From positions 72,848 to 136,847 of the forward strand of contig CAYJQY010000001.1 in NCBI GenBank assembly GCA_964372905.1: a DNA stretch of 64,000 nucleotides, read 5' to 3'. Under the pieces are notes generated by a model. That model did not search any database and was not told where the DNA came from. It worked only from the letters and a program-made list of their open reading frames with translations. Below are positions 35,710-50,416 of this stretch, piece by piece (the stretch's first letter is position 1; each line of letters begins with the position of its first letter). A program made the position numbers and the translations under genes. This DNA is from an uncultured Candidatus Saccharibacteria bacterium (GTDB taxonomy: Bacteria; Patescibacteriota; Doudnabacteria; UBA920).

Positions 35710-35784
35710 GGCCCATTCGTCTAGTGGCTAGGACGACTGGTTCTCAGCCAGTAAACAGGGGTTCGATTCCCCTATGGGCTACCA
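35710..35784 (+). tRNA. tRNA-Glu(CUC)
   Basis: Cloverleaf: acceptor GGCCCAT/ATGGGCT (G1-U72), anticodon stem ACTGG/CCAGT, loop uuCUCag, T-arm AGGGG-TTCGATT-CCCCT, encoded CCA. Confidence 0.8.
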
Positions 35785-35943: not shown

Positions 35944-36612
35944 TTATTTAATCCCGACAGTAACTGCGGCGCCGGGAAAATACTTTGCCACTATTTTTAC
36001 CTCAGTAAAACCAGCTTGTTGTAAGTATACAGGAATAAGTCCTTCCAGATTGCCCTTTAGGTATTCCGCATTTTCAAAGAGGTGCAATAACTTTGGCATC
36101 CAGCTAGTTTTAGTAGGTCCGAAGTCTGCAATGAGCACTTTTCCGCCCGGTTTTAAGATCCGGTATGTTTCTTGAATGGCTTTTCTTTTTATCTCATCCG
36201 GCAAATGATGAAACACAAGCGAGCTGACGGCTCTGTCCGCAGAATTATCCGGTAACGGCACGCTTTCCGCAAATGCCTGAATTAATTCCACTTCAAACTT
36301 GTTTTTTGCAAAACGGTTTCTGGCAATGCCAAGCGCTCGCGTGTCTGGGTCAATACCGATAAAGCGAGTGCGAGGATACTGTTGCTTGCCGAGCGCCAGC
36401 AGCACTCCAGTGCCGCATCCGACATCCACCACTGTATCACCGTCCCGAATTTCTGCCGCGGTTAAGACTTTCCGCAAAAAGCGCTTGCCAAGTCCGATCA
36501 GCCCACTTACAGTATCGTAAATTGGAGTTAAAAAATCCTTGTTCAGCGGGGGTATATATTTGTAATTGGGTTGGTAAGCCATAGTAGTTAAAACTTTTGT
36601 GGTTTCGTCCAA
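35944..36612 (-). CDS. class I SAM-dependent methyltransferase
   Basis: Motif I VVDVGCGTGV and post-I acidic residue. 222 aa. Confidence 0.75.
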   Translation of the reverse strand: MDETTKVLTTMAYQPNYKYIPPLNKDFLTPIYDTVSGLIGLGKRFLRKVLTAAEIRDGDTVVDVGCGTGVLLALGKQQYPRTRFIGIDPDTRALGIARNRFAKNKFEVELIQAFAESVPLPDNSADRAVSSLVFHHLPDEIKRKAIQETYRILKPGGKVLIADFGPTKTSWMPKLLHLFENAEYLKGNLEGLIPVYLQQAGFTEVKIVAKYFPGAAVTVGIK

Positions 36613-36677: not shown

Positions 36678-36762
36678 CTACACTTTTAATTTTGCCTCCA
36701 CGCGCTTTAATAATACCGCATTATTCATCGCCGCAATAATGGAAGATGCAAACACGAGCAGA
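36678..36762 (-). pseudogene. remnant of a P1B-type ATPase (CopA-like) 3' end
   Basis: Minus-strand frame translates to ..SSIIAAMNNAVLLKRVEAKLKV*, paralleling the copA C-terminus SSIIVATNAVLLKRVEKYLKN*. A 25-bp exact repeat (ccacgcgctttaataataccgcatt) occurs at 36698-36722 and 37240-37264. Confidence 0.6.
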
Positions 36763-36764
36763 CA

Positions 36765-37190
36765 TTAACACTTGCATTCCCATAGGTTGTTAAACCACCT
36801 GATCACATACCGCCAGATGAAAAAGTACAGCACAGGCAGCCATAACCAGGCAATGTTGTGATAGAAATAATCAAATTTTTGTCCGTCCACAAAGATTCCA
36901 ACGACTGCTTGAGTTGCTTCCGCATGAATCCGGTGGCCAGCCGGATAAAGAATTGGCGACAAGCCAAAAATTAAGCCCAATGCCGCTCCCCAAAGGTCAA
37001 TACGAAATTTGGGAATCCGGTTTTGAATTACAAAATACATAACATTCCATAGTGCATATATAAAGGGAGCAAGTGTAAATTCCCACACAAGCAGACCGTA
37101 ATTTTTGGTTACTTGACCATAGAACACGAGCAAAGCCACGATTGCTCCTGGGAAAATAAATCCTGAAATAAAAGCTTTAAAATATTTCAT
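36765..37190 (-). CDS. hypothetical 4-TM membrane protein flanked by copA 3'-end repeats
   Basis: 141-aa hydrophobic ORF lying between the copA remnant and the intact copA. Confidence 0.5.
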   Translation of the reverse strand: MKYFKAFISGFIFPGAIVALLVFYGQVTKNYGLLVWEFTLAPFIYALWNVMYFVIQNRIPKFRIDLWGAALGLIFGLSPILYPAGHRIHAEATQAVVGIFVDGQKFDYFYHNIAWLWLPVLYFFIWRYVIRWFNNLWECKC

Positions 37191-37219
37191 TAGTTTCTGT
37201 TCACTAATTATTAGACAAC

Positions 37220-39508
37220 CTAATTCTTTAAATATTTTTCCACGCGCTTTAATAATACCGCATTCGTGGCTACGATGATAGAAGAAGCGGACATGAGCAA
37301 TGCGGCAATTTCCGGGCGCAATGACCAGCCTAAGCTATTATAAAATACTCCGGCCGCCACCGGAATGGCCAGCACATTGTAAATAGCGGCCCAGAACAGG
37401 TTCTGCTTCATCTTCGTAACCGTAGCTTTGCTCAAACGGATAGCCGCGACAATATCGTAGGGATCTGATTTCATGAGAACTATATTGCCGGTCTCAATCG
37501 CCACATCAGTTCCCGCGCCAATGGCAATGCCAATGTCTGCCTGCGCCAAGGCTGGCGCATCGTTAATGCCGTCACCGACCATAGCTACGAATTTACCTTC
37601 ACCTTGCAGTTTCTTGACATGCGTTGCTTTGTCCCCGGGCAGAACTTCAGCAAATACTCGATCAATGCCTAAATCTTTTCCCACTGCCTCGGCCACTTTG
37701 ATATGGTCGCCGGTAATCATAGCAACCTCAAGACCTAAATTTTTAAGCGCGCTGATGGCTTTTTTAGAAGTCGGTTTTACGGTGTCGGCAACCGCAATCA
37801 CCCCCGCCAGTCTGTTGTCTACCGCGATTAAGCTAAGCGTCTTGCCTTGTGCCGCCAAGCTGTCAATCTGATTGCGCTCTCCGGCAGTATCAATTCCTTT
37901 ATCAGTCAACAGTTTTTCTTTCCCTGCCAGTACCTGCTTGCCTCCAATAACACCTTTGAGGCCGAAGCCGGCAATAGATTCAAAATTTGAAATTTGCTCT
38001 CCGTTTAGATTCCGGCTTTTCGCTTCGTCAACAATGGCTTTGGAGATGGGATGATTGGAAGCCGAACCAATGGCGGCTTGCAGCCGCAATACTTCATCGG
38101 GTTGAAACCCGTTAAAACCCAATACATCGGTGACTTTTGGCTTGCCTTCGGTCAGCGTTCCGGTTTTGTCCAAAACAATAGCGGTGAGGCGAGAAGTATT
38201 TTCAAGTGTAGCCGCGTCTTTTATTAAAATATTATGTTTCGCTCCGATTCCTGTGCCGACCGCCACGGCAGTCGGCGTGGCTAGGCCAAGCGCGTCAGGA
38301 CAAGCAATAACAACTGTAGCTACGGCAAATGTCAACGCGGTCAGCAAGCTCGCGCTCCCCAAAAAATACCAACCAAGGAACGCAGCCGTACCAGAGCCGA
38401 TTGCCACGACTACCAATCTGCCGGCCCAGAGGTCGGCAATCCTCTGACCGGGGGCTTTGGAGTTCTGCGCTGTTTCCACCATTTTGATGATTTGCGCTAA
38501 AACGGTTTCCGAACCCACTTGGGTGGCTTCAAATTTTACGATTCCGGTAATATTAACCGCTCCGCCGACAACTTTATCGCCGATCTTTTTGCTGACGGGG
38601 ATAGATTCTCCGGTAACCAGGGATTCATCAATTGCGCTTTCTCCTTCGGTGACCTTACCGTCTACCGGCACCTTGTCACCCGGACGCAATACGACAATAT
38701 CTCCCTTAATGATTTCTGCACTGGGGACAGTCATTTCCTTGCCGCTACGAATCACGGTTGCTTGGGGAGGGACCAAATCAAAGAGGGCTCGCAGAGCGTC
38801 GGATGTGCCTCTGCGGGATTTCATTTCCATCCAATGACCGAAAAGAACAAAGGTGACCAGCAATGCTGCCGCTTCAAAAAAGGTTTCCTTGCCGCCAATC
38901 AGGGTGAGCAAGACGCTAAAAACATAAGCGGCCAAGACGCCGGTGGCAATCAGCACGGCCATATTCAGCTTTCGGGCTTTCAGAGAGTAGTAAGTGCCGG
39001 TTAAAAAGATGGAACCGGTCCAAAATACAATAGGGGTAGTGAGAATAAGCAGCAGCCAATTAACCGGGATTGGAGTTGGAAGATTCAGCTTAAAGATATT
39101 GATCCCCACCGGGGAATACAAAAAAATGGGAATAGAAAGCAGAAAGGAAATCCAAAACCTGCGCCGCATATCCGCGGCCATTTGCTTAGCGATGGCCGGA
39201 TTGGTCATGGCGGCCTCGTGATCCGCATGGCTCATGGCTTGCATATCATGGCCGGCGTGAGAGTCGGCTTTTTTGGACTTGCCCGCCATAGCCCCGCCTG
39301 CCGGCCGGGCAGGTTTAGCGGAGACGGGAATTAAATCCATGCCGCAGCCCGGGCATTTGCCTGGTTCTTTTTTGATTACCTCGGGATGCATTGGGCAGGT
39401 ATAAACCTGCTTGTCGTCATTCATTTTATTATGATGATTATGATTCATATCCATATAATTTATTAACTTAATACCCGGAAAACTCTTCAGTTCGAATGTT
39501 GTCTTCAT
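37220..39508 (-). CDS. copA: copper-translocating P1B-type ATPase with N-terminal CPMHPE-type metal-binding domain and CPD (not CPC) membrane motif
   Basis: DKTGT, GDGINDAPAL, TM MSASS motif, N-terminal YTCPMHPEV...CPGCGM and a His/Met-rich stretch. The TM6 motif is IACPDALGLATP. AGGTG SD before M1, with a 41-nt overlap of the upstream gene. Confidence 0.9.
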   Translation of the reverse strand: MKTTFELKSFPGIKLINYMDMNHNHHNKMNDDKQVYTCPMHPEVIKKEPGKCPGCGMDLIPVSAKPARPAGGAMAGKSKKADSHAGHDMQAMSHADHEAAMTNPAIAKQMAADMRRRFWISFLLSIPIFLYSPVGINIFKLNLPTPIPVNWLLLILTTPIVFWTGSIFLTGTYYSLKARKLNMAVLIATGVLAAYVFSVLLTLIGGKETFFEAAALLVTFVLFGHWMEMKSRRGTSDALRALFDLVPPQATVIRSGKEMTVPSAEIIKGDIVVLRPGDKVPVDGKVTEGESAIDESLVTGESIPVSKKIGDKVVGGAVNITGIVKFEATQVGSETVLAQIIKMVETAQNSKAPGQRIADLWAGRLVVVAIGSGTAAFLGWYFLGSASLLTALTFAVATVVIACPDALGLATPTAVAVGTGIGAKHNILIKDAATLENTSRLTAIVLDKTGTLTEGKPKVTDVLGFNGFQPDEVLRLQAAIGSASNHPISKAIVDEAKSRNLNGEQISNFESIAGFGLKGVIGGKQVLAGKEKLLTDKGIDTAGERNQIDSLAAQGKTLSLIAVDNRLAGVIAVADTVKPTSKKAISALKNLGLEVAMITGDHIKVAEAVGKDLGIDRVFAEVLPGDKATHVKKLQGEGKFVAMVGDGINDAPALAQADIGIAIGAGTDVAIETGNIVLMKSDPYDIVAAIRLSKATVTKMKQNLFWAAIYNVLAIPVAAGVFYNSLGWSLRPEIAALLMSASSIIVATNAVLLKRVEKYLKN

Positions 39509-40244
39509 TTACACCTGCATTAGCAAGTAACTCTTTCATCGCGGCAACCATGCTTGGCGGTCCGGCAAGATAATAGATAGATGCTTGAAGATCGTCAACA
39601 TACCGCTCTATCATGGCGCGGTCTATATATCCTGTTTCTCCTTGCCATTCCGTCTTTGATTTTTCAGGTTCAGTCATGGTTGGAACAAAGGTGAACGCTG
39701 GGTTTTGCTGAGCCAACTCTTGAAGTTCAGCGAGGGATGCCGCGTCTTCCGGCCGGCGATTAGAGTAAAACAGATATATATGATGGGGCAGTTTTCTTTC
39801 GGTTGCATCTTTAATCATAGAAAGTACGGGAGTTATGCCAATGCCTCCAATAAGAAACACAGCAGGCTTTGACGCGTCGCTATGCAACATAAATGACCCG
39901 TGCGGGTTTTCAATTGAGACAGTATCTCCAATCTCCATGCGTCCCAGAACTCTCTTAAAGGCAGTATCTCTCATTCGTGTTGCAATAACAATATCCTGCT
40001 CTGTAGGCGAATTCACAAAGGAAAACATTCTGCTGTTGCCCTCGGCGTCTGTTTGTGGAGGATTAATCAGGATCATCTTTACATGCTGGCCGGCCTTAAA
40101 CGAAAGCTCTGCCGGCTTTTCGAAAAAGAAAGCCATCGTGCCCTCCGCTACTTCTTTCTTGTCCTTCAGCGCGATTTCAAACACCTTTGCGTGTTCATGG
40201 TGTGTATGTTCGTGATGATCGTGTCCGTCATGATCGTGATTCAT
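39468..40244 (-). CDS. FNR-like FAD/NAD(P)H oxidoreductase (ferric-reductase-type flavin domain) with His-rich N-terminus
   Basis: FAD motif RMFSFVNSP, NAD(P)-binding GGIGITPVLSMI, N-terminal MNHDHDGHDHHEHTHHEH. Confidence 0.7.
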   Translation of the reverse strand: MNHDHDGHDHHEHTHHEHAKVFEIALKDKKEVAEGTMAFFFEKPAELSFKAGQHVKMILINPPQTDAEGNSRMFSFVNSPTEQDIVIATRMRDTAFKRVLGRMEIGDTVSIENPHGSFMLHSDASKPAVFLIGGIGITPVLSMIKDATERKLPHHIYLFYSNRRPEDAASLAELQELAQQNPAFTFVPTMTEPEKSKTEWQGETGYIDRAMIERYVDDLQASIYYLAGPPSMVAAMKELLANAGVNEDNIRTEEFSGY

Positions 40245-40311
40245 GTTTGTGATAGGTTAAACGAATAAATACTTATAAAATAATTGGGCTTGGTCTACTT
40301 GGGTATGATAT

Positions 40312-40971
40312 TTAATGCATTATTTGAGAATTATTTTGAGGCTTCATTTCAAACTGATAAGCGCCCTCGGGTTCGCGGTAGCTAATAAGCAAACCGGAGG
40401 CAATCAACAAAAACAGCATCCACGCATAAGCCGCTAATTTCAGTCGGCCTTTTCCCAACACCTCCACCGCTCTAAACACTCCCGCCAGAATAAAGGAAGC
40501 GCCTAAATATCGATGAATGGTTACCGCTCTCACAACTGCTTCGGAAGTGCCATGCTGCTCGTGGGTTAAAAATAGCACACCAATTATTAAAAGAACTATG
40601 GGAAAAGCCGCTTTCGGCCAGAGCTTGTCAGTTTTCAAGCTATAAAGTTCAGCTGCCCCGGCAACTGTGGCCAGAATTGCCAAATAAAAATGTTGGCGCT
40701 GTTGCGCATCCGTGATGGTAGCCTTCCAAGCCAACCCCATTTCATTGAAGTGGTGGGAAAATGAAAAAATAGGTAAAAACAATCCGGCCATAAGCATCAG
40801 GCTTGGCCAGGCATACTTTAGCCAGTTCGCCCGATAAATTCCGGTTATTTGCACAAAAGCAATAATAACCACCATAGCAAAGAGCGCACCCTCAACCCAA
40901 TGACCCAGGTTGGATAAGTAAATCAACTCATCTAGCGTATGTAATTGTAAAATAATTGGTAAATTTTCCAT
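40312..40971 (-). CDS. 6-TM His-containing membrane protein (candidate heme-binding ferric-reductase/MsrQ-like partner)
   Basis: About 6 TM helices with conserved-looking His in the helices (HH, THEQH). Immediately upstream of the FNR-like flavoprotein on the same strand. Confidence 0.4.
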   Translation of the reverse strand: MENLPIILQLHTLDELIYLSNLGHWVEGALFAMVVIIAFVQITGIYRANWLKYAWPSLMLMAGLFLPIFSFSHHFNEMGLAWKATITDAQQRQHFYLAILATVAGAAELYSLKTDKLWPKAAFPIVLLIIGVLFLTHEQHGTSEAVVRAVTIHRYLGASFILAGVFRAVEVLGKGRLKLAAYAWMLFLLIASGLLISYREPEGAYQFEMKPQNNSQIMH

Positions 40972-41092
40972 ACTATTTTAACTCTCAAATAAAATTTCTT
41001 AAGCTTACATCTCCCACATGTAATACTTACGCGAACATTACTTCTCCCGGCTTTTGACAAAGTTTAAAATCCATCGGTAAAATTATATATTA

Positions 41093-41275
41093 TCAATTAA
41101 CGGCGTCATCGTCTTCTACAATTTCATCTTGTGGTACGTATTCTTCGGGGCGCATTATAAAATTATCTTTGCATGCGGTACAGCACAAATGGTAAGCCAC
41201 TCCACGAAACTTTATAATCGCGTGTTCCTGCTTCTTGCGGATTTTCTTTTTGCAAACCGGATCAATATAATGCAT
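41093..41275 (-). CDS. YHS-domain metal-binding protein
   Basis: DPVC...HAIIKFRGVAYHLCCTACKDNF, YHS/TRASH-like. 60 aa. Confidence 0.6.
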   Translation of the reverse strand: MHYIDPVCKKKIRKKQEHAIIKFRGVAYHLCCTACKDNFIMRPEEYVPQDEIVEDDDAVN

Positions 41276-41278
41276 ATA

Positions 41279-41911
41279 TTAATATTTTGAAATCTTTTCC
41301 ATGAGCATATCGTTATTCACGGCCATGTTGGCGTCGTCCAAGACTTCTCGCACCATACCTTGTTTATCAATAAGGATATAGGTGTGTCCCAGCGCCTGTC
41401 CGGGATGCATAGACGACCCCATAGATAAAAGTCCTAAACGATAGGAAGCTGTACCGGCTAAATCAGCGTGATGAGCAGAAGTGCCGCCACCCCCACCTTG
41501 ATCAAATAGGATTGTAGCTTTGGCTAAATCCGGCATTTTGGCTGTCGCTGTTTGCCAGTTTTCGGGCGCGTCAGTCACTACTGAAAGAGCAACAATATCC
41601 TCCTTGTTAAACCGTGGATCGGTTCCAAATGCCGCCATCTGGTTCCAACAAGCCGGATAGCACATTATCCCTTCATTAAAAAACAACACGACATTCTTAC
41701 CTTTAAGACTGGCGAGGTCATAGTCTTTTCCGTCTTTATCTTTCAGGGTAATATTCGGCAGCGGCTTGCCGACAAGGCTGCTGGTTGTAGTCGCGGCTTG
41801 CTGTTTTTGCTCACTGGTCTTGCTGGTATTGAATAAAGCTATGCCAACAATGACCGCGACGACAGCGGCAAGCCCCAAAATCACAAATGGTTTTACATTA
41901 TTTTTGCTCAT
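41279..41911 (-). CDS. membrane-anchored SCO1/SenC-like thioredoxin-fold protein (CxxxC)
   Basis: N-terminal TM helix, GKNVVLFF..MCYPAC (C-x3-C), downstream His/Met-rich segment. Overlaps ccdA. Confidence 0.55.
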   Translation of the reverse strand: MSKNNVKPFVILGLAAVVAVIVGIALFNTSKTSEQKQQAATTTSSLVGKPLPNITLKDKDGKDYDLASLKGKNVVLFFNEGIMCYPACWNQMAAFGTDPRFNKEDIVALSVVTDAPENWQTATAKMPDLAKATILFDQGGGGGTSAHHADLAGTASYRLGLLSMGSSMHPGQALGHTYILIDKQGMVREVLDDANMAVNNDMLMEKISKY

Positions 41912-42761
41912 GGTTTTTAAATTGTTTAATGATGTAAATTATTAACAGAATAAGGATGAGGAGGACGAGTCCGGCCCACACCAGTTCAGGAATTTTCTGG
42001 GTAAAACGGTGTACCGAATGGACGAGATTGGCCATCAGAATATTAGTTGAGAGCTGATAACTGGACTGCATGGCCAGTTTGTTGGCCAAGGCCAAATAAA
42101 TGATATACACGCCCATGCCAAGGAATACGAATCCGGCCACTGTTTCAGCTAAGTTAAACCGCCAGGTAAAACTGCCTAACTTCAAGGTGCGCGGTTTTCT
42201 CAATGACGCAAACTTTTGGGTAAAGTTAATCTTATCCAGAAAGAAAGCAATCAGGAACAAGGGCATGACCATGCCGAGCACATAGCTTAAGGTGTAGACG
42301 CCGCCCCATAAGACACTGCCGCTGGTAACCGAAAGTGCTAGTACCCCGGCTAACACCGGCGCGCAGCAAGTGGTGGCAATAGCGGAGAAGATCCCTAATA
42401 CATAGACTGAAATAAAACTATACTTTTTTACTGACGGGTTTACGAATGACGGCAATGACATTTGTTTGCCCATAACCAGCGCTATACCCAAGCCAGCCAG
42501 CATCAGTCCTCCTAAAGTAAAAATAAAATTGTGATACTTATTAAACACCTGCGCCAACGCCGAAGCTCCCAGACCAATGGGCAGAAAGATGGTCAAAATG
42601 CCCAAAAAGAACATAAAAGTCATCAACACGACCTTGTATCTCTCTTTGAATACTGATCCCAAGTAGGACGGCAACAAGACCGTAATGCAGCAGGGCGCAA
42701 AGAGCGCCGCGATACCGGCAATGAAGGCCGCAATAATAGAAGTGCTTGCAAGTAAGTCCAT
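41898..42761 (-). CDS. ccdA: cytochrome c biogenesis protein CcdA / DsbD-family thiol-disulfide transporter
   Basis: FIAGIAALFAPCCITVLLPSYL matches the CcdA first-Cys segment. About 6-8 TM helices. 287 aa. Confidence 0.7.
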   Translation of the reverse strand: MDLLASTSIIAAFIAGIAALFAPCCITVLLPSYLGSVFKERYKVVLMTFMFFLGILTIFLPIGLGASALAQVFNKYHNFIFTLGGLMLAGLGIALVMGKQMSLPSFVNPSVKKYSFISVYVLGIFSAIATTCCAPVLAGVLALSVTSGSVLWGGVYTLSYVLGMVMPLFLIAFFLDKINFTQKFASLRKPRTLKLGSFTWRFNLAETVAGFVFLGMGVYIIYLALANKLAMQSSYQLSTNILMANLVHSVHRFTQKIPELVWAGLVLLILILLIIYIIKQFKNHEQK

Positions 42762-42770
42762 AAAATAATT

Positions 42771-42956
42771 TTAATCTTTCTTATCTTTAAATCGTTCGTC
42801 GTCCTCAACCGGCAAATCTCTTACCTGTCCCTTATTTACTGCCTGTTTAGCAATTAAATAATTACAACTATCATGGCTTGAGCACCACGCCTGGCATTGC
42901 TCCGCGATTTTTTCGTCAGAATATGCTAATTTACAGATTTTACATTGATATGTCAT
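42771..42956 (-). CDS. small Cys-rich zinc-ribbon-like protein
   Basis: CKICK...CQAWC..C pattern. 61 aa. Confidence 0.4.
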   Translation of the reverse strand: MTYQCKICKLAYSDEKIAEQCQAWCSSHDSCNYLIAKQAVNKGQVRDLPVEDDERFKDKKD

Positions 42957-42963
42957 ATCAATA

Positions 42964-43428
42964 TTATTCTAAATTCCATCTAAAAGATCGCTCCGGGACA
43001 CCGCCTACATCCTTTATTTTCAGTTCAACATATTTTGGAATCGGGTTAATGCTGTTAAAAATCAAAGCGCCTTCCCGATGGTGGCCTCCCGGTCCTGGCC
43101 CTTCCCACGATACTGGCTGATACACACTGCCCTTATCATCAACCAATACTGCGACCTTGGTGGGATCTTGGTCCAAGTCGCCTGAATGCGCAGTAAAAAC
43201 AACAGTGAACTTCCATAGCTTAGCATCTTTGCCGAATTCAGTCGGCGTTATTTTAATTGACACCGGCGGCGGCTCGTCGGTTTTGGTTTCCCACTGCTTG
43301 GCATTCTGTTCTTGGCTGGTCTGCGCCGCCTGCTCACGCCCTTTCCTGCCGTCCGGGTAAACTGCAAAATAGTAATAGAGCAGGAAAATAACAGCCAGTC
43401 CGATTGCAATAAATCGCCAGTATTTCAT
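42964..43428 (-). CDS. hypothetical membrane-anchored extracytoplasmic protein
   Basis: N-terminal TM helix followed by a soluble domain with GPGPGGHHREG. No family recognised. Confidence 0.45.
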   Translation of the reverse strand: MKYWRFIAIGLAVIFLLYYYFAVYPDGRKGREQAAQTSQEQNAKQWETKTDEPPPVSIKITPTEFGKDAKLWKFTVVFTAHSGDLDQDPTKVAVLVDDKGSVYQPVSWEGPGPGGHHREGALIFNSINPIPKYVELKIKDVGGVPERSFRWNLE

Positions 43429-43865
43429 CCGCCTTTAACTTTAATGATTTTGCTTGTCACATACGCAATGCCTAAGGCATTAAACAGCAGCCCAACCCAG
43501 AATAGTTCTACTTGATACTGCGCAACGAATGTGACAATCCCCACGGCTCCAAGCACCGGCAAAACATTTGCCAGATAGTGGGTACAGCAGGACACCATGG
43601 CGGCCGTAGAAGTGGCGCCGGTCACACCAACTACTTTGCCGGCGCCTTGCGCGCCTTTTATCAGTGTTCGCAGGTATGCGTAGAGTCCGATTTGAATCCC
43701 AAAGCCCAGAGCCAGGCTGAGAATGAAATACCAGAAGCTATTGAATTGATCTTTGGCAAAGGCCCAGCCGGAAACCAACGAAAGCACTGAAAAATACAGT
43801 CCCAATAGAACAAGTGCTGCAATGAACCCGTAAATTACAGATTTTTTAATCGCGATCGTTTCCAT
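43425..43865 (-). CDS. hypothetical 4-TM membrane protein with intramembrane CC-x-HY motif
   Basis: MVSCCTHYLANVLP inside a predicted helix. 146 aa. Confidence 0.45.
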   Translation of the reverse strand: METIAIKKSVIYGFIAALVLLGLYFSVLSLVSGWAFAKDQFNSFWYFILSLALGFGIQIGLYAYLRTLIKGAQGAGKVVGVTGATSTAAMVSCCTHYLANVLPVLGAVGIVTFVAQYQVELFWVGLLFNALGIAYVTSKIIKVKGG

Positions 43866-43870
43866 AGGCC

Positions 43871-44065
43871 TTATTGCTTTGGAATATAAGCTTTTGGGTC
43901 TTGGGTAAATTGCTCTTTACAATAATCAGAGCAGAACTTATATTGCACTCCTTCATGCTTATGGATAATTGAATCAGTCGGCCGCATACCGCAGACCGGA
44001 TCTTTTGACGGTGCTCCGCTGGCTACGCCTTTGTTTCTTTTGAACAATGAACTGAATACGCTCAT
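43871..44065 (-). CDS. YHS-domain metal-binding protein
   Basis: DPVCGMRPT...YKFCSDYCKEQF matches the YHS/TRASH consensus. 64 aa. Confidence 0.7.
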   Translation of the reverse strand: MSVFSSLFKRNKGVASGAPSKDPVCGMRPTDSIIHKHEGVQYKFCSDYCKEQFTQDPKAYIPKQ

Positions 44066-44085
44066 AAATTTTTGCCTCCACTGGA

Positions 44086-44346
44086 TTAATGATGCTCGTG
44101 GGTGGACGGTTTTTCAGCAGGACCCAACTGCCTCTCCGGGTCTTCTTCCTTGGATTCACCATGGCCGCGGCCGCCGAACATCATCAGAATGTGGGCCAGA
44201 ATAAATACGCCGATGATGGAAAACCACAGCCAATTCGAGGAAAAGCCGCCGCTTCTGCCTCCAAATAACAAAAATGCGAGCGGCAGCAGTAAGCAGCTGG
44301 CCATCATCCACCACATCATTTTGGAATCGTGATTGTTATGGTTCAT
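44086..44346 (-). CDS. small membrane protein with His-rich termini (DUF2933-like)
   Basis: MNHNNHD... two TM helices ...STHEHH. This architecture is common next to heavy-metal efflux genes. Confidence 0.5.
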   Translation of the reverse strand: MNHNNHDSKMMWWMMASCLLLPLAFLLFGGRSGGFSSNWLWFSIIGVFILAHILMMFGGRGHGESKEEDPERQLGPAEKPSTHEHH

Positions 44347-44387
44347 AGATAATGAACATTAATTGTGACCGAGCATAATAATCCTTT

Positions 44388-44657
44388 CTACCGTTCCGCC
44401 TTGATGCTGGAATTGTGCATCCAGACCATGTAGGCGCCGAAGATCCAGGCAATAACGGCGATCAGAATGAAGCCCCAGACCACGCTTCCCAAAGTTAGCC
44501 AAGTAAACCCGGGCAGGGTTTCAAACAAAGTGTGGTGCAATTCTATTCCTCTCTGGCTGCGCAGCGGCAGAAATCCGCCCATGAGGCAAAGGACGTAGAC
44601 GATTTCCGCTCCCAAAATACATTTCCAGACATATGATTGTAATGATAATCTTCCCAT
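44388..44657 (-). CDS. hypothetical small membrane protein
   Basis: 89-aa ORF with 2-3 TM helices. First gene downstream of the csoR-like gene. Confidence 0.4.
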   Translation of the reverse strand: MGRLSLQSYVWKCILGAEIVYVLCLMGGFLPLRSQRGIELHHTLFETLPGFTWLTLGSVVWGFILIAVIAWIFGAYMVWMHNSSIKAER

Positions 44658-44668
44658 ATATTTGCGAG

Positions 44669-44941
44669 CTACTTATTTGATAAAGTATAGACCTTAATCA
44701 GTTCCTTGATGGCTTTTTCATCTTCGCCCTTGCTCTGCATTTGGTGCTTGACGTGAGTGCGGAGATGATTTTCCAGGAGGAACGCATCCAGGCTCTTGAG
44801 CGACCTTTGGATAGAGAGCGACTGTTCCAACAAGGTGGGACAGTATACCTCTTTTTCAATAGCCTTAATAAGACCGTCTAGCTGTCCCCGGATGATTTTA
44901 CCCCGATGGATAGCGCGTTTTTTGAGTTTTTGGTCTACCAT
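44669..44941 (-). CDS. csoR: CsoR/RcnR-family metal-sensing transcriptional repressor
   Basis: 90-aa all-helical protein with Cys (YCPTLLEQ) and downstream His residues in the spacing of the CsoR C-H-C/H ligands. Heads the metal gene cluster. Confidence 0.65.
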   Translation of the reverse strand: MVDQKLKKRAIHRGKIIRGQLDGLIKAIEKEVYCPTLLEQSLSIQRSLKSLDAFLLENHLRTHVKHQMQSKGEDEKAIKELIKVYTLSNK

Positions 44942-44980
44942 AGTATTAGTTATCCCCAGATTAATTATAATTACATAGGT

Positions 44981-44996
44981 TATACCCCTATACCCT
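44981..44996. promoter_or_regulatory. direct repeat tataccc-c-tataccc upstream of csoR (candidate operator)
   Basis: G/C-tract-containing repeat located 40-55 bp upstream of the csoR start codon. Confidence 0.25.
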
Positions 44997-45192
44997 ATTT
45001 ATACTCTCCCCATCAAAATCTGTCAAGGGCGTTATTTACCACAGGCCACCATCACCTCGCAGTATCGAGCGGCTCGGATGGATCATTGGATGCTGTAAGC
45101 TGATACCAAAAGCATAGACTCAAACGCCTGAACCAAGCCGGCCTAGCGGCCAGTTTTGAATTACCGAGCAAACGTGTAATAATACTTGGTAT

Positions 45193-45705
45193 ATGCTCTC
45201 CAACAAAAACGAATACCTCACTTACGTAAGAAACTTCATTTTCGGCGTGGAAGATAGCCTGGTGTCCACCGTCGGACTCCTTTCCGGTATCGCAGTCACC
45301 AATGTCTCAACCAGCGCCATTGCTTTAACCGGAGTCGTCCTAATCTTTGTGGAGGCCTTTTCTATGGGCGTGGGCAGCTACCTTTCGGAACATTCCACGG
45401 CTAATTACGAAGGCAATGCCCCAGATACCCACCCCAGAACTTCAATTATTGCCGGAGTCATCATGCTGGCCTCATATTTAGCGGCAGGCATAGTTCCCCT
45501 GCTACCTTATCTAATTGCCCCGCGGCAGACAGCCTTCTGGCTGTCTATTGCCTCTTCGCTGGTTGCCCTGTTTATCCTCGGTGCTTTAAGCGCTACCATG
45601 CTGAAAAGCAAAATTTGGATCGGCGCCATCCGGATGTTCCTGCTGGGCGGCACGGCCATAGCCATTGGGATTACCGCAGGAAAAATCGTGGAGCGCCTAA
45701 GTTAG
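45193..45705 (+). CDS. VIT1/CCC1-family Fe2+/Mn2+ transporter
   Basis: FGVEDSLVSTVGLLSGIA (the G-x-x-D-G-L-V-S motif) and about 5 TM helices. 170 aa. Confidence 0.7.
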   Translation: MLSNKNEYLTYVRNFIFGVEDSLVSTVGLLSGIAVTNVSTSAIALTGVVLIFVEAFSMGVGSYLSEHSTANYEGNAPDTHPRTSIIAGVIMLASYLAAGIVPLLPYLIAPRQTAFWLSIASSLVALFILGALSATMLKSKIWIGAIRMFLLGGTAIAIGITAGKIVERLS

Positions 45706-45728: not shown

Positions 45729-46898
45729 TTAGCTATTTGCCACCACTCTGTTCCAAGTAGTTTTGACGATAGTGTCCAAATCGCTGTAGCGTGGCTCAAA
45801 CCCGAGCTCGCGCTTAATTTTGGAATTGTCGGCTACGGTGGCCGCCGCATCGCCGGGGCGGCGCGCGCCCATTTCAATGGGAATCATCCGGTTAGTTATT
45901 TCCGCAACCGCCCGAATCATTTCAGCCACGCTGCAGCCTTTGCCCGTACCAACATTATAAACATTATGGTTCTGCTCTATTCCCAGCTTCTCTAAAGCCA
46001 AAATATGAGCATCGGCAATATCTAAAACATGAATGTAATCGCGGATGCAGGTGCCGTCAAAAGTATTATAATCGTTGCCGAAAATGATGATCTTTTCGCG
46101 CGCGCCGCGGGCAACATCCATTACAATAGAAACTAAATGGGAATTAGTGTGCGTGTCGCCCAAGTCGCCCTCAAAAGAAGCGCCGCAGACATTAAAGTAG
46201 CGCAAGGTCGTGGTCTCGAAATCCAAGTACATGGCGTAATACTGTACCAGCATTTCAGCCAAAAGTTTGGAAAACCCATAGGGATTATTAGGCTGCGGCG
46301 GCGTGTTTTCCGGGATAGGGATATTGTCCTGCTCCCCATACACCGCCCCGGTAGAAGAAAAAATCAATTTTTTCACTCCGGCGGCGTTCATGGCCTGAAG
46401 CAGGACAGCGGTATTGATAAAATTATTTTGAAGATATTCGGCTGGTTTAGCCACGGATTCCTCAACCTCCAGGCTGGCGGCAAAATGCATGACAGCATCA
46501 ATTTTATTGTCAGAAAAAATTCGTTCCAGTAATTTCATATCCCCAACATCACCTTCATAAAAAACCGCCTGCTCCGGAACGAATTCACGGCGGCCCGTAG
46601 ACAAATTATCGACAATTACTACCTTATAGCCCTTATCAAGCAACTGCCGCACTGTGTGGGAGCCAATATAGCCCGCGCCGCCGGTGACTAAAATATGCTC
46701 CGGTTTCTTAGACGCCGCCCGGCTTTCCCCAGCTGGCTTCAGTTTGGATTGTCCGGCCTGCACAACCTGCTCCAGCAAATCGTTATATTTCTGAATGTTC
46801 AAAACCACGGCCTCGGACTTGCCGCCCATGCTCAAAATTATCCCCCCGCCGCGCAGATTAACTTCTTTGATTAACTCTTCCAAGTAACTGGAATCCAT
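45729..46898 (-). CDS. galE: UDP-glucose 4-epimerase with fused N-terminal Phd/YefM-like domain
   Basis: Residues ~70-389 are GalE (ILVTGGAGYIGSH, YxxxK, NVGTG). Residues 1-65 (SSYLEELIKEVNLRGGGIILSMGGKSEAVVLNIQKYNDLLEQ) resemble the Phd/YefM antitoxin fold. Read-through is continuous, with no internal start codon before ILVTGG. Confidence 0.8.
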   Translation of the reverse strand: MDSSYLEELIKEVNLRGGGIILSMGGKSEAVVLNIQKYNDLLEQVVQAGQSKLKPAGESRAASKKPEHILVTGGAGYIGSHTVRQLLDKGYKVVIVDNLSTGRREFVPEQAVFYEGDVGDMKLLERIFSDNKIDAVMHFAASLEVEESVAKPAEYLQNNFINTAVLLQAMNAAGVKKLIFSSTGAVYGEQDNIPIPENTPPQPNNPYGFSKLLAEMLVQYYAMYLDFETTTLRYFNVCGASFEGDLGDTHTNSHLVSIVMDVARGAREKIIIFGNDYNTFDGTCIRDYIHVLDIADAHILALEKLGIEQNHNVYNVGTGKGCSVAEMIRAVAEITNRMIPIEMGARRPGDAAATVADNSKIKRELGFEPRYSDLDTIVKTTWNRVVANS

Positions 46899-47170: not shown

Positions 47171-50100
47171 TTACTTCCAGATAAAGTCGATAATCTGCTT
47201 ACCGCGACGGCGCATCAGGGCGAAACCGCCGGTCAGGAGTCCGGCAAAGCCTATAGCCGCCATGCCGCTGCCGGCGCCGGTCTTTGGCGCGATAAAGCGC
47301 GGCTGGCCGGGAATCGGAGGAATGGTAATAGTCACAGTATTGCCGTAGGTGTTGGTCATCACAAAGGTCTGCTGGGCGGACAGGAAGAATTTGACCCGGG
47401 CGCGGAAGCTCTTGGAAATTGAACCGCCAGCCGGAATATCGACACTGGAGAAAGTAATCGTATTCCCGCTCAAGCTTCCGCCGCCCCTGTCAACCATGTC
47501 AGCGAAAGGCAGGACGCCGGATAGATCATCGGTAATGGTAAAATTATTGGCCCGGGCATTGCCTGTGTTAGTCACGGTCAAAGTGTAGGTGATGAAATCC
47601 TCGCGGGCAGCCAGAGTAGTGGTCGCGTCAACATTCTTGGTATCATTATGCGCGCGTTTGCTGAAAATTAAGTTAGGGTTGCCCGTAGTGGTGGTGGTGG
47701 TATCGTTGTCAACAAAGACGAAAGCATCATCTTCGATCCGGCTCACGCCGTCGCCGGTGGCGCGGGCAATGTTCTGGATCGTCCTGGAAGAAGTCGAATT
47801 GACCCTGGCTTCAAACCTGATTCGACGCGACTCGCCGCTTCTAAGATCACCAAGATCCAGATCAATCCTGTTGCCGCTGGAGTTGTCATCATCCAAATCA
47901 TCAGCGTCGATGCTGTCGGTATCCACGTCTAAGCTGCTGGGCACCGAATCGGTCACCCGGACGTTATCTACCGTCTCGCTTCCGGTATTTCTCACCCTGA
48001 TTTCAAACTGGACCTCGTCATCGTTATCGGCATTAACGCTATTGCGCAGCGAAGTGCTCTGGGTTATGTTGCGGACCTGTTTTTCGATAGACAGTTCGCC
48101 GAAGCCGTCACCTATAAAGCGGTTGATAAATACGGTCGCGGAATCGCTTAACGAACCGACGCCGCTGCCGAATACTGTTGCGGTGTTGATAATGACAGTC
48201 TGGCTCTGGCCCGAAGCACCAAAAGCGCGGGCTTGGAAAGTCAAGACGCGGCTCTGGCCCGAAGTCATAGTGCCGACACTGATGAAATTGTTAATGAAGC
48301 TGTCTGAAATTGTTTGGCCATCGAGGCGTCCCGATCCGCTTACTAGCGTAAGGTGGCTCGGCAGGTTTTCCGACAACTGCACATTATTAACGGTACCGTT
48401 GTTGGCCGTCACCACAACCCGATATTCCACGCGCTCGCCGTCCTCGGCTGTGGTCTGTTTGGCAAAGCTCGTGCCGCGGGTCTGGTTGCGAACGTGTTTG
48501 GTGATGTTCAGATTGCCAGCATTCTGGTTGATGCTAACTCCGCAAATATCGCTGGTGCCGCTGCTCGTTACGGTAACGTTGCGCTGACCAGAGGTAGAAT
48601 ACGAAGTATTGAAAGTCGAACCGGAACCGGATGAAGGGTTGCCGCTCGGAGCAGACCAGGAGAAAACGCCGTTGCCGCCCGAGGCGGAGAAGAACATGGT
48701 TTGATTAACATCGCCCGACTGGAAACTAGGCGTGCATTCTACCGCATTGACGATTTGATTAACTTGAACTCCACAGGTATCGCTGGTGCCGCTGCTTGAT
48801 ACGGTCACGGTTTTTGATCCGGAAGTGGAATAGGAAGTGCTGAATTGGGAGCTTGATCCCGAAGAAGGGTTGCCGCTCGGAGCAGACCAAGAGAAAACGC
48901 CGTTGCCGCCCGAGGCAAAAAAGTTAGCCGTTTGTCCCACATTCACGCTCTGGAAGCTTGGCGAGCAGTCTACTGGGTTAACAACAATTTGATTGACCTG
49001 CACCGCGCAGGTATCGTTGGTACCATTACTCGTAACAGTTACAATCTTCTGTCCCGAGGTCGAATACTTAGTCTGGAAACTAGAGCTGGATCCGCTGGAG
49101 GGGATGCCTCCGGGAGCAGACCAGGAGAAAACGCCGTTGCCGCCCGAGGCGGAAAAGAATACCGTTTCATTGATATCCGCGCTCTGGAAGCTTGGCGAGC
49201 AGTCTACCGGATTCGGCTGAGGAATCTGATTCTGTTGATTCTTAAAGACCACTGTAGCACACTGCGGGCCGCTGAAAACTTCCACCACGCCGCCTGCCGG
49301 GGTCACCAACAATTGCTGCCAGCCGGACGGAACTGATTCAGTTACCGCGTGCGTGCCCGCGGAAACATTATTGAAGCGGGCATGACCGCCCGAATCATTC
49401 ACTGCGGTTGCGCCGCCGTCCAAGCGGAAAATGAATTGCGCCACCGGGGTAATTGGCTGGCCTTGGGTATTAAAGGTTTCTTTGATTACGTCGATACAGC
49501 CCACCACTTGGGGCGGTTGGTTGACGTTCACAGCACAGGTATCGCTCAACCCGCCGCTGCTTACGGTCACGGTTTTTTGACCCGGGCTATTGTAAGAGGC
49601 TGAAAAGTTGGAGCCTGAACCAGACGAGGGGTTGCCGCCCGGAGCTGACCAGGAAAAGACACCATTACCGCCCGAGGCCGTAAACAAAGCCGGCACGTTC
49701 ATGTCAACAGTCTGATTATGGGGGGCGCAAATAACCTGCTGAATCGGCGGACTCTTCACGCGCATCTTGAATTTCACAAAACCGCTGAATTCAAAGCAGG
49801 CCCGCAGGTCCCCCAGAGAAAATTCCCCGTTGGAGTCTATGCTAAAACCGCTCTGCACCAGGTTGCCTCGGAAGTCAAAGCGCTGGCCGCTGCCAGGAAT
49901 GATTTCTAAACTCTCGTTGGCATTGGTATGGATAAAAATTGAGTCGCGGATCGTGGCGGCATTATCGGCGCGCAGAGCAATTTTAACCCGGTGCTCTGCG
50001 GCAGCGGCCGTATCAATATTCGTTCCAACTGCAACATTAAACGCTGTAGTAACATTGGGATCGCCATTTACAATAGCCCCGTTATGGAAATACACCAACA

Positions 50101-50416
50101 CGTCAACAACATCGCCGGCATGGGCCGTAACACCTGCCGCTTGCTCGGCATCGTTCCTGGGGTATTGGCCGTTTTCAAGCTTAGCCCGGACCAAAGGAAA
50201 ATCCACACAGGCCAAACCTGGATCGCCGTAAACAATGGGAAACGGATTGAATACCGGGGTTTGAAATTCCTGACAGTCTTCGGCCAAGGCGTTATCTGAA
50301 CGCTGCGGCGCAAAAGCAAAAATGGCGCCGACAGCCAATAAAATCAGCCCCACTTTCCAATTAAAGCGAGGAAAAATCGAACGGAATTTTGACCAAAATG
50401 CTCGCTGGGTGGACAT
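47171..50416 (-). CDS. giant repeat-containing cell-surface protein with C-terminal sortase-type sorting signal
   Basis: N-terminal signal/TM. About five ~75-aa repeats (..CSPSFQS..FFSASGGNGVFSWSAPGGNPSSGS..TVTVTSSGT.DTC.VQVNQ). About three DUF11-like 'conserved repeat' domains. C-terminus IAPKTG followed by a hydrophobic segment and RRRGK. Confidence 0.8.
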   Translation of the reverse strand: MSTQRAFWSKFRSIFPRFNWKVGLILLAVGAIFAFAPQRSDNALAEDCQEFQTPVFNPFPIVYGDPGLACVDFPLVRAKLENGQYPRNDAEQAAGVTAHAGDVVDVLVYFHNGAIVNGDPNVTTAFNVAVGTNIDTAAAAEHRVKIALRADNAATIRDSIFIHTNANESLEIIPGSGQRFDFRGNLVQSGFSIDSNGEFSLGDLRACFEFSGFVKFKMRVKSPPIQQVICAPHNQTVDMNVPALFTASGGNGVFSWSAPGGNPSSGSGSNFSASYNSPGQKTVTVSSGGLSDTCAVNVNQPPQVVGCIDVIKETFNTQGQPITPVAQFIFRLDGGATAVNDSGGHARFNNVSAGTHAVTESVPSGWQQLLVTPAGGVVEVFSGPQCATVVFKNQQNQIPQPNPVDCSPSFQSADINETVFFSASGGNGVFSWSAPGGIPSSGSSSSFQTKYSTSGQKIVTVTSNGTNDTCAVQVNQIVVNPVDCSPSFQSVNVGQTANFFASGGNGVFSWSAPSGNPSSGSSSQFSTSYSTSGSKTVTVSSSGTSDTCGVQVNQIVNAVECTPSFQSGDVNQTMFFSASGGNGVFSWSAPSGNPSSGSGSTFNTSYSTSGQRNVTVTSSGTSDICGVSINQNAGNLNITKHVRNQTRGTSFAKQTTAEDGERVEYRVVVTANNGTVNNVQLSENLPSHLTLVSGSGRLDGQTISDSFINNFISVGTMTSGQSRVLTFQARAFGASGQSQTVIINTATVFGSGVGSLSDSATVFINRFIGDGFGELSIEKQVRNITQSTSLRNSVNADNDDEVQFEIRVRNTGSETVDNVRVTDSVPSSLDVDTDSIDADDLDDDNSSGNRIDLDLGDLRSGESRRIRFEARVNSTSSRTIQNIARATGDGVSRIEDDAFVFVDNDTTTTTTGNPNLIFSKRAHNDTKNVDATTTLAAREDFITYTLTVTNTGNARANNFTITDDLSGVLPFADMVDRGGGSLSGNTITFSSVDIPAGGSISKSFRARVKFFLSAQQTFVMTNTYGNTVTITIPPIPGQPRFIAPKTGAGSGMAAIGFAGLLTGGFALMRRRGKQIIDFIWK

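Follow-up and report, generated by a model that had tools for sequence, protein, structure and literature searches.

The window analysed here is a stretch of 64,000 nucleotides (nt) from a Patescibacteria/Candidate Phyla Radiation (CPR)-like genome, and the subject of this study is the block between positions 36678 and 45026 of its minus strand, where 14 open reading frames (ORFs; g01 to g14), all co-oriented, lie in a row (Table 1). At its head stands a gene for a CsoR/RcnR-family repressor, followed by small membrane proteins and mini-proteins, a CcdA-type transporter with a CxxxC partner, a flavin reductase and a P1B-type copper ATPase. We consider it likely that the region is one operon for copper stress of the Cu(I)/Ag(I) type under the control of this repressor; its metal specificity, and its mechanisms as far as they go beyond family membership, are what we infer. 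An earlier note on this DNA had counted 13 minus-strand genes, all of which are found where it placed them; it had overlooked g14, which brings the number to 14.

Table 1. Genes and sequence elements of the block; the last column gives the number of loci, out of 80, in which the gene or its family (in brackets) lies within 10 kb of g05 (aa, amino acids; TM, transmembrane segments)
Feature	Positions	Strand	Description	Loci of 80
-35 hexamer	45021-45026	-	TTGACA, read from sequence	
-10 hexamer	44998-45003	-	TATAAA, read from sequence; 17-nt spacer to TTGACA	
Operator (24 bp)	44975-44998	-	ATAGGGTA-TAGGGGTA-TAACCTAT; outer inverted repeat, inner G-tract, direct 8-mer repeat	
g01	44669-44941	-	CsoR/RcnR-family repressor, 90 aa; ligand set x-Cys34-His59-His63	49 (CsoR)
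g02	44388-44657	-	2-TM protein, 89 aa; invariant Cys13, Cys24, His41, W-x-H-N; putative distant DUF5676	30
g03	44086-44346	-	Small 2-TM protein, 86 aa; His-rich ends; putative divergent DUF2933	28
g04	43871-44065	-	YHS/TRASH mini-protein, 64 aa; C-x20-C-x3-C	34 (YHS)
g05	43425-43865	-	4-TM protein, 146 aa; invariant intramembrane S-C-C-x-H-Y and G-F-G-x-Q	
g06	42964-43428	-	N-terminally anchored extracytoplasmic Ig-like beta-sandwich, 154 aa; invariant His81, His116, His117 (GGHHR)	77
g07	42771-42956	-	Cys-rich mini-protein, 61 aa (CxxC...C...WC...C)	14
g08	41898-42761	-	CcdA-type thiol-disulfide electron transporter, 287 aa	35 (CcdA)
g09	41279-41911	-	Membrane-anchored extracytoplasmic thioredoxin/peroxiredoxin-fold protein, 210 aa; overlaps g08 by 14 nt	29
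g10	41093-41275	-	Second YHS/TRASH mini-protein, 60 aa	34 (YHS)
g11	40312-40971	-	6-TM protein, 219 aa; putative TMEM45/Ytp1-like fold	1
g12	39468-40244	-	FNR/Fre-like NAD(P)H flavin reductase, 258 aa	2
g13 (copA)	37220-39508	-	P1B-type copper ATPase; His-rich N-terminus, HMBD	67 (P1B ATPase)
g14	36765-37190	-	Hydrophobic membrane ORF, 141 aa, between copA and copA relic	0
copA 3'-end relic	36678-36761	-	84 nt: 27 codons and stop, start codon lacking	

Regulation and conserved gene order

Upstream of g01 the sequence holds one sigma-70-like promoter, whose TTGACA hexamer keeps its place beside the operator in the majority of related loci; the TATAAA hexamer is missing from the list of the automatic promoter scan, which demands a T at position 6. 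The 24-bp operator abuts this promoter, shares the final base of the -10 box and covers the expected transcription start region, and with its G/C tract and AT-rich inverted-repeat flanks, placed at the regulator's own promoter, it has at the sequence level the features of a CsoR-family operator. Its 18-mer core (ATAGGGTATAGGGGTATA, 44981-44998) occurs as a single copy in the window, where chance alone would yield 0.01 matches, and in 28 loci it is retained ahead of the orthologous regulator at a distance of ~11-68 nt, mostly 40-58, thus bearing out the candidate repeat operator that had been proposed ahead of the CsoR gene. The same core also precedes detached units, made up of a 138-aa membrane ORF, CcdA and the CxxxC protein g09, in two loci (L027:3995-4012 and L044:5254-5271). 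Therefore CcdA and its partner belong to the same regulon, and this operator copy of their own supports the previous view of the pair as part of a metal response rather than of cytochrome c maturation. Sister islands with regulators of the Cys-His-Cys (C-H-C) type carry the canonical ATACCCC-N-GGGGTAT box in place of the island operator.

From g01 to g10 the intergenic distances range from -14 to +41 nt, longer gaps being found ahead of g11 (121 nt), g12 (67 nt) and g14 (29 nt). Three other Patescibacteria genomes (L023, L037 and L041) show synteny for g01-g10 together with the pump, and modules recombine in other genomes, sister islands containing multicopper oxidases, DUF2933 and ICMT genes and, in L007, a serine recombinase. 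The earlier note had asked whether the block would prove fragmented in related genomes with no shared regulation; the synteny and the shared operator answer that it is not. Its core reading, a copper island under a CsoR-family repressor, holds and is strengthened by the same synteny, by the operator kept before 28 regulators and by the multicopper oxidases near sister islands. A literature search on copper resistance in Patescibacteria retrieved nothing specific, and no paper combining CPR with CsoR was found.

The assignment of g01 to the CsoR family, already made in the earlier note, is borne out by its score against PF02583 (62.8 bits for a cut-off of 22.8; 4e-17) and by its best matches in the PDB, the CsoR proteins of Mycobacterium tuberculosis and Thermus thermophilus; the FrmR, RicR and RcnR models all recognise it weakly. 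Its Cys34, His59 and His63 align with Cys36, His61 and Cys65 of M. tuberculosis CsoR, so that the Cu(I)-sensing Cys-His-Cys triad appears as Cys-His-His (C-H-H), a set found in 30/30 close orthologues; more distant island regulators divide into 11 C-H-C and 9 C-H-H proteins. T. thermophilus CsoR (H-C-H-H), which controls copZ-csoR-copA (PMC5057107), has the C-H-H ligand set in common with g01. More generally, the island shares with the CsoR copper efflux operons (M. tuberculosis cso, Bacillus subtilis copZA and T. thermophilus copZ-csoR-copA) a CsoR-family repressor, a G/C-tract inverted-repeat operator at the promoter, and a P1B copper pump with small cytoplasmic copper-binding proteins under that repressor. 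It differs from them in lacking a CopZ (HMA) chaperone, in whose place stand the YHS/TRASH mini-proteins, in an operator (ATAGGGTA-TAGGGGTA-TAACCTAT) unlike the canonical box, and in about ten additional genes.

The pump and the g05/g06 pair

The product of g13 matches the Pfam families E1-E2_ATPase, Hydrolase and HMBD, reaches 563.5 bits against the TIGR01511 Cu-ATPase model (cut-off 397) and 594 bits against TIGR01525, compared with 381 bits for the Cd/Zn model, and aligns to Archaeoglobus fulgidus CopA at 6e-165. In this alignment its fourth transmembrane segment (TM4) reads ACPDALGLATP where A. fulgidus CopA has ACPCAFGLATP, i.e. CPD instead of the CPC of P1B-1 or the CPH of P1B-3 pumps, and the Cu(I) signature is retained in TM5 (YN(x4)P, as AAIYNVLAIP) and TM6 (M(x2)SS, as LLMSASS). 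The CPD form is common among relatives of the island: in 55 island pumps adjoining g05 the TM4 motif is CPD in 22, CPC in 17 and CPH in 13. In the literature CPD is noted solely as a novel P1B-3-like subtype in Rhizobiales, and CPD pumps are uncharacterised (PMC5552934). With P1B-3 (CopB) ATPases and this Rhizobiales subtype g13 shares the His-rich N-terminus, the TM5 YN(x4)P, a TM6 of the MSxS[ST] type and a TM4 CPx; it departs from P1B-3 in CPD replacing CPH/CPC and in carrying the zinc-ribbon-like HMBD. Hence the previous designation as CopA stands as regards a Cu-type P1B ATPase (TIGR01511), but the pump is CopB-like with CPD rather than a CopA with CPC. Since alignments of homologues begin at residue 15-22, the true start of g13 is probably M19 or M21 (39454 or 39448), and with this later start the apparent 41-nt overlap with g12 disappears.

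The g05 and g06 genes overlap by 4 nt. Both termini of g05 are predicted to be cytoplasmic, and the AlphaFold2 (AF2) model of g06 (pLDDT 82) finds generic beta-sandwiches only as structural matches. In g05, g06 and 117 family representatives alike, no Pfam model matches these domains, and the family lacks an NCBIfam relative; no solved structure in the PDB is related to g05 or g06, and no match to g05 was found in the PLSDB plasmids. The idea of g05 as half a CcdA (3+3 TM repeat) was rejected, the hhalign probability against CcdA being 1.4%. The family is nonetheless large, with more than 2375 g05 homologues at 65-74% identity, all unnamed and mostly from Patescibacteria/CPR, and at least 580 g05 loci in species-representative genomes, among them those of Noviherbaspirillum, Ramlibacter, Sulfuricaulis and a Nitrospirae metagenome-assembled genome. 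Clustered at 50% identity, g05/g06 proteins form 963 clusters, mostly of Patescibacteria and also of Betaproteobacteria and Nitrospirae.

Domain fusions and gene neighbourhood connect this pair to copper export. Of the best 150 representatives at 50% identity, 35 have g05 and g06 fused, and ~20 bear a YHS, HMA or HMBD domain, in most cases N-terminal. A 958-aa ORF of Noviherbaspirillum sp. ST 5-3 (L078:7568-10444, NZ_CP176528.1) joins in frame a Cu-ATPase, His-rich, with HMBD and of the CPC type, and g05, and g06 comes next; the organism is in culture and its genome is complete. From the neighbourhood and these fusions, which link g05/g06 to copper pumps nearly as closely as computational evidence can, we infer that the two proteins are physical partners of the pumps, a role that went unrecognised when they were previously described as a CC-motif membrane protein and an anchored periplasmic protein. 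Tentatively, and in our estimate a little short of an even chance, they may be the two halves of an undescribed and widespread bacterial copper-handling membrane system, acting either as a P1B-docked Cu(I) relay or as a secondary copper exporter. In the relay variant, Cu(I) would pass from cytosolic YHS/HMA/HMBD domains through the intramembrane Cys-Cys-x-His site to the outer three-His beta-sandwich. A functional analogy is offered by MerT/MerP and CopC/CopD, which likewise combine a small membrane protein having a vicinal Cys pair in a helix with a metal-binding soluble domain on the outer side, the two parts being sometimes fused. The g05/g06 proteins show no sequence relationship to those systems, whose hidden Markov models (HMMs) match neither of them nor any of the 117 representatives; moreover, the fusions of g05 place HMA, YHS or HMBD in the cytoplasm and tie the protein to an exporter, so that the direction or role is likely to differ.

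Redox module, accessory proteins and flanking sequences

The earlier call of g08 as CcdA is upheld by PF02683 (DsbD_TM; 32.4 bits for a cut-off of 27.1). Both of its catalytic Cys, one per half, have aligned counterparts in T. thermophilus CcdA (5vkv), and a second, conserved Cys comes directly after each (PCC, TCCAP). Downstream, g09 has a single N-terminal hydrophobic segment, matches Redoxin (6e-11) and AhpC-TSA (4e-11), and keeps invariant M-C84-Y-P-A-C88-W, S-M-H169-x-G and G-H176, the CxxxC being invariant in 28 sequences. The nearest solved relatives of the g09 family profile are Bcp-type peroxiredoxins, pneumococcal Etrx and ResA; its active site is not CxxC, since three residues separate the Cys (CYPAC), and the ResA and Etrx alignments break there. 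The label Sco1/SenC-like previously given to g09 has to be amended: SCO1-SenC (PF02630) gives no match at E <= 0.1, no Sco structure is among the best 60 hits of the family profile, and the protein is of TlpA/ResA/peroxiredoxin fold with CxxxC. It does share with Sco1/SenC the thioredoxin/peroxiredoxin-like fold and the CxxxC, and one of its invariant His might make up a Cys2His site, so that a Sco-like copper site in g09 is possible from its sequence, but the cytochrome oxidase context of Sco1/SenC is absent. The His176 residue aligns with the active-site Arg of peroxiredoxins.

A CcdA-type transporter beside an anchored thioredoxin-fold protein is also the arrangement of CcdA/ScsB reductive pathways (Salmonella ScsABCD, CcdA-ResA, CcdA-Etrx and TlpA), and Scs shares with the island's pair the context of a copper response. 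The differences are the CxxxC of g09 instead of CxxC and the extra Cys after each catalytic Cys of g08. The resemblance to Scs suggested in the earlier note is sound for this pair and not beyond it, no DsbA/DsbG-like (ScsC) or ScsA-like ORF being present in the block, which holds one CcdA-type transporter and one anchored thioredoxin-fold protein; by analogy, then, the likeness is a functional one only.

Two of the mini-proteins, g04 and g10, conform to the YHS/TRASH pattern C-x19-22-C-x3-C, share 36% identity and exceed the PF04945 cut-off of 30.3 bits (33.5 and 36.8 bits, respectively), confirming the two YHS proteins reported before; g04 is a putative cytoplasmic Cu(I) chaperone. Gene finders left g04 uncalled on the identical Logan contigs L001-L003, though it is above the Pfam YHS cut-off and conserved in related loci. 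Ettema et al. are said to have described archaeal copT-copM-copA clusters with a TRASH-domain chaperone, CopM. Those clusters have in common with the island small TRASH/YHS proteins encoded beside a copper ATPase and its regulator; the island differs in a regulator of another family, in having two YHS genes and in its many membrane accessories. Elsewhere, g07 is usually encoded immediately upstream of CcdA or copA. The window copies of g02 and g03 are below the Pfam cut-offs themselves; 14/26 members of the g02 family match DUF5676, below the cut-off, and 6/22 members of the g03 family match DUF2933 (best 1e-24). In Proteobacteria, DUF2933 genes are known to lie beside copper ATPases, and copA-cupredoxin-DUF2933-ICMT cassettes (PMC8478169) there pair a small His-rich membrane protein of the DUF2933 type with a copper pump, much as g03 would here; the island variant of L007 also has DUF2933 and ICMT. 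The island's regulator is of the CsoR and not of the MerR type, and the window has neither cupredoxin nor ICMT.

After g10 comes a pair, g11 and g12, that appears to be a lineage-specific addition. Invariant His24, His94, His137 and His153 of g11, together with the nearly invariant His74 and His140, cluster on one face of the membrane; by the positive-inside rule this is probably the outer face, K and R being abundant in the loops on the other side. The g12 protein matches FAD_binding_6 (1.3e-5), NAD_binding_1 (2.3e-21) and Fre PRK08051 (7e-29), with RxFS and GGxGxxP visible in the sequence, and has an N-terminal tail with 10 His in its first 18 residues. The 6-TM and FNR-like genes had been counted in the island by the earlier note; the FNR-like reductase is confirmed, but the pair is a rare add-on outside the conserved island, recurring with its His-rich tail in L089 and L091, where Cu-ATPases and multicopper oxidases adjoin it. 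A 343-aa relative of g11, P0125, carries a cupredoxin domain, an independent hint that the g11 family deals with copper. MsrQ-Fre (NOX-like) two-component systems and TMEM45/Ytp1 membrane proteins provide an analogy for the pair; unlike MsrQ, g11 matches no ferric-reductase or cytochrome b HMM and has its conserved His on one face rather than in two haem sites. A search of the literature on TMEM45A function found nothing useful, and a role of g11/g12 as a cupric reductase is a guess.

At 45.8% guanine-plus-cytosine (GC), against 50.3% elsewhere, the 8.3-kb block (36678-44998) is the lowest-GC stretch of the window, and it adjoins a tRNA-Glu gene (35710-35784); both features fit a horizontal acquisition of the block. 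No integrase is encoded in the window, and an Rfam search of the window returned two tRNAs and nothing else; the island variant of L007/L008 is followed by a serine recombinase. The lowest GC among the larger genes of the block (40.6%) is that of g14, which has no family match in Pfam or NCBIfam and no homologue in any fetched locus. Beyond g14, the copA 3' fragment reported earlier is real: the 84-nt relic translates as LLVFASSIIAAMNNAVLLKRVEAKLKV up to the stop and is 81% identical to the copA 3' end at the DNA level, with an identical core of 26 nt. A second, duplicated copA gene was rejected, tblastn revealing no copy other than this relic.

The flanking genes could not be assigned to the island. 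A gene of the VIT1 (Fe/Mn) transporter family (45193-45705) diverges from the 251-nt region that contains the island promoter, and its membership is unsupported in view of the lack of linkage in other genomes. The same applies to the class I S-adenosylmethionine (SAM) methyltransferase gene (35944-36612) that flanks the island, which is rarely or never linked elsewhere; a 30%-identical methyltransferase lies directly upstream of g05 in a Ryanbacteria locus (L004:2167-2814), too weak a link to call. Further away, 45729-46898 encodes a UDP-glucose-4-epimerase-like protein whose N-terminal extension of ~65 aa weakly matches the Phd/YefM antitoxin (E 0.017), and 47171-50416 a secreted or anchored protein of 1081 aa, probably a surface protein, with several near-identical internal repeats of ~90 aa (SASGGNGVFSWSAPGGNPSSGS...).

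Metal specificity and alternative readings

On the basis of these families a way in which the operon would work can be proposed. When copper is not in excess, a repressor tetramer with its Cys34-His59-His63 sites would sit on the operator and block the start of transcription, and binding of the metal would set it free. The two YHS/TRASH mini-proteins and the Cys-rich g07 would then buffer Cu(I) in the cytoplasm and pass it on, the CopB-like CPD ATPase would export it, and g05 and g06, attached to the pump, would take part in a hand-off or relay among the cytosolic metal-binding domains, the site within the membrane and the outer His site. CcdA would feed cytoplasmic reducing power to the anchored g09, which would either mend outer thiols oxidised by copper or keep copper in a Sco-like Cys2His site, and the TMEM45/Ytp1-like g11 with the His-tailed NAD(P)H flavoreductase g12 may add, in this lineage, a cupric reductase.

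Several observations weigh against this picture as a whole or in part. Near the island, g11, g12 and g14 are found in 1, 2 and 0 of the 80 loci, and the 121-nt and 67-nt gaps before g11 and g12 hold weak promoter-like sites, e.g. the sigma-70-like site at 41002-40975 on the minus strand of the gap 40972-41092, so that separate transcription is possible and g11-g14 may have their own promoter. The fusion of the ATPase with g05 has been seen once only, and the direction and mechanism proposed for g05/g06 are based on architecture and neighbourhood only. Where characterised Cu pumps have Cys or His, the CPD motif has Asp, a harder ligand, and the third sensing ligand of g01 is a His instead of a Cys. 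Together with His66, its C-H-H set gives an H-x3-H-x2-H spacing, which we take to be that of the Ni/Co-sensing RcnR of Escherichia coli.

These ligands speak for an island that senses and exports other or a wider range of metals (Zn, Cd, Co or Ni) instead of copper specifically, which we regard as unlikely. The weak scores of g01 on all three of the FrmR, RicR and RcnR models leave room for it, as do the uncharacterised CPD pumps, in which Asp replaces the second soft ligand (PMC5552934), and T. thermophilus CsoR with the same motif is poorly metal-selective, responding to Cu, Zn and Cd (PMC5057107). The pump nonetheless scores better on the copper than on the Cd/Zn model and keeps the Cu(I) signature of TM5 and TM6, and elsewhere the g05/g06 core is paired with CPC CopA, CPH CopB, C-H-C CsoR and multicopper oxidases; the domains fused to g05 are HMA, YHS and HMBD. 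The adjoining VIT1 gene would also suit a broader metal range, but it is unlinked to the island in other genomes.

Less probable still is that CcdA, the CxxxC protein, g05 and g06 serve copper acquisition or cuproprotein assembly, on the TlpA-Sco or CopC-CopD models, and not detoxification. The Sco-like CxxxC and invariant His of g09 would suit such a function, an outer His-rich beta-sandwich beside a membrane partner resembles CopC/CopD, and the multicopper oxidases near sister islands require copper; these four genes, however, lie with an efflux pump behind a CsoR-type repressor, which implies that they are switched on by excess metal, the Sco, CopC and CopD HMMs give no match, the block has no cuproenzyme gene, and the partners fused to g05 are cytosolic metal-binding domains of the kind that exporters typically carry and, in one case, the exporter itself. 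A fortuitous assembly of unrelated genes that happen to share a strand, without common regulation, is very improbable, for the variable module content among genomes, the rare g11, g12 and g14, the copA relic as a sign of recent rearrangement and the low GC beside a tRNA gene are set against an identical order of g01-g10 plus pump in three other genomes, co-occurrence of 35-96% within 10 kb in genomes of ~1 Mb, an operator common even to detached CcdA units and parts joined by domain fusions.

The copper-stress operon proposed here is therefore of a known kind, the CsoR type, and what it adds is a C-H-H clade with its own operator, a CPD pump, a CcdA/CxxxC module and g05/g06. It brings together variants of well-studied parts, namely the C-H-H clade of CsoR, the CPD clade of P1B ATPases, a CcdA with doubled Cys and a thioredoxin-fold partner with CxxxC, and it provides in g05/g06 concrete candidates for the release of copper by P1B pumps on the outer side of single-membrane cells. 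Although genomes are tiny in the CPR/Patescibacteria, a group with hardly any cultured members, many of these bacteria retain the island, which suggests that copper stress exerts a major selective pressure on them.

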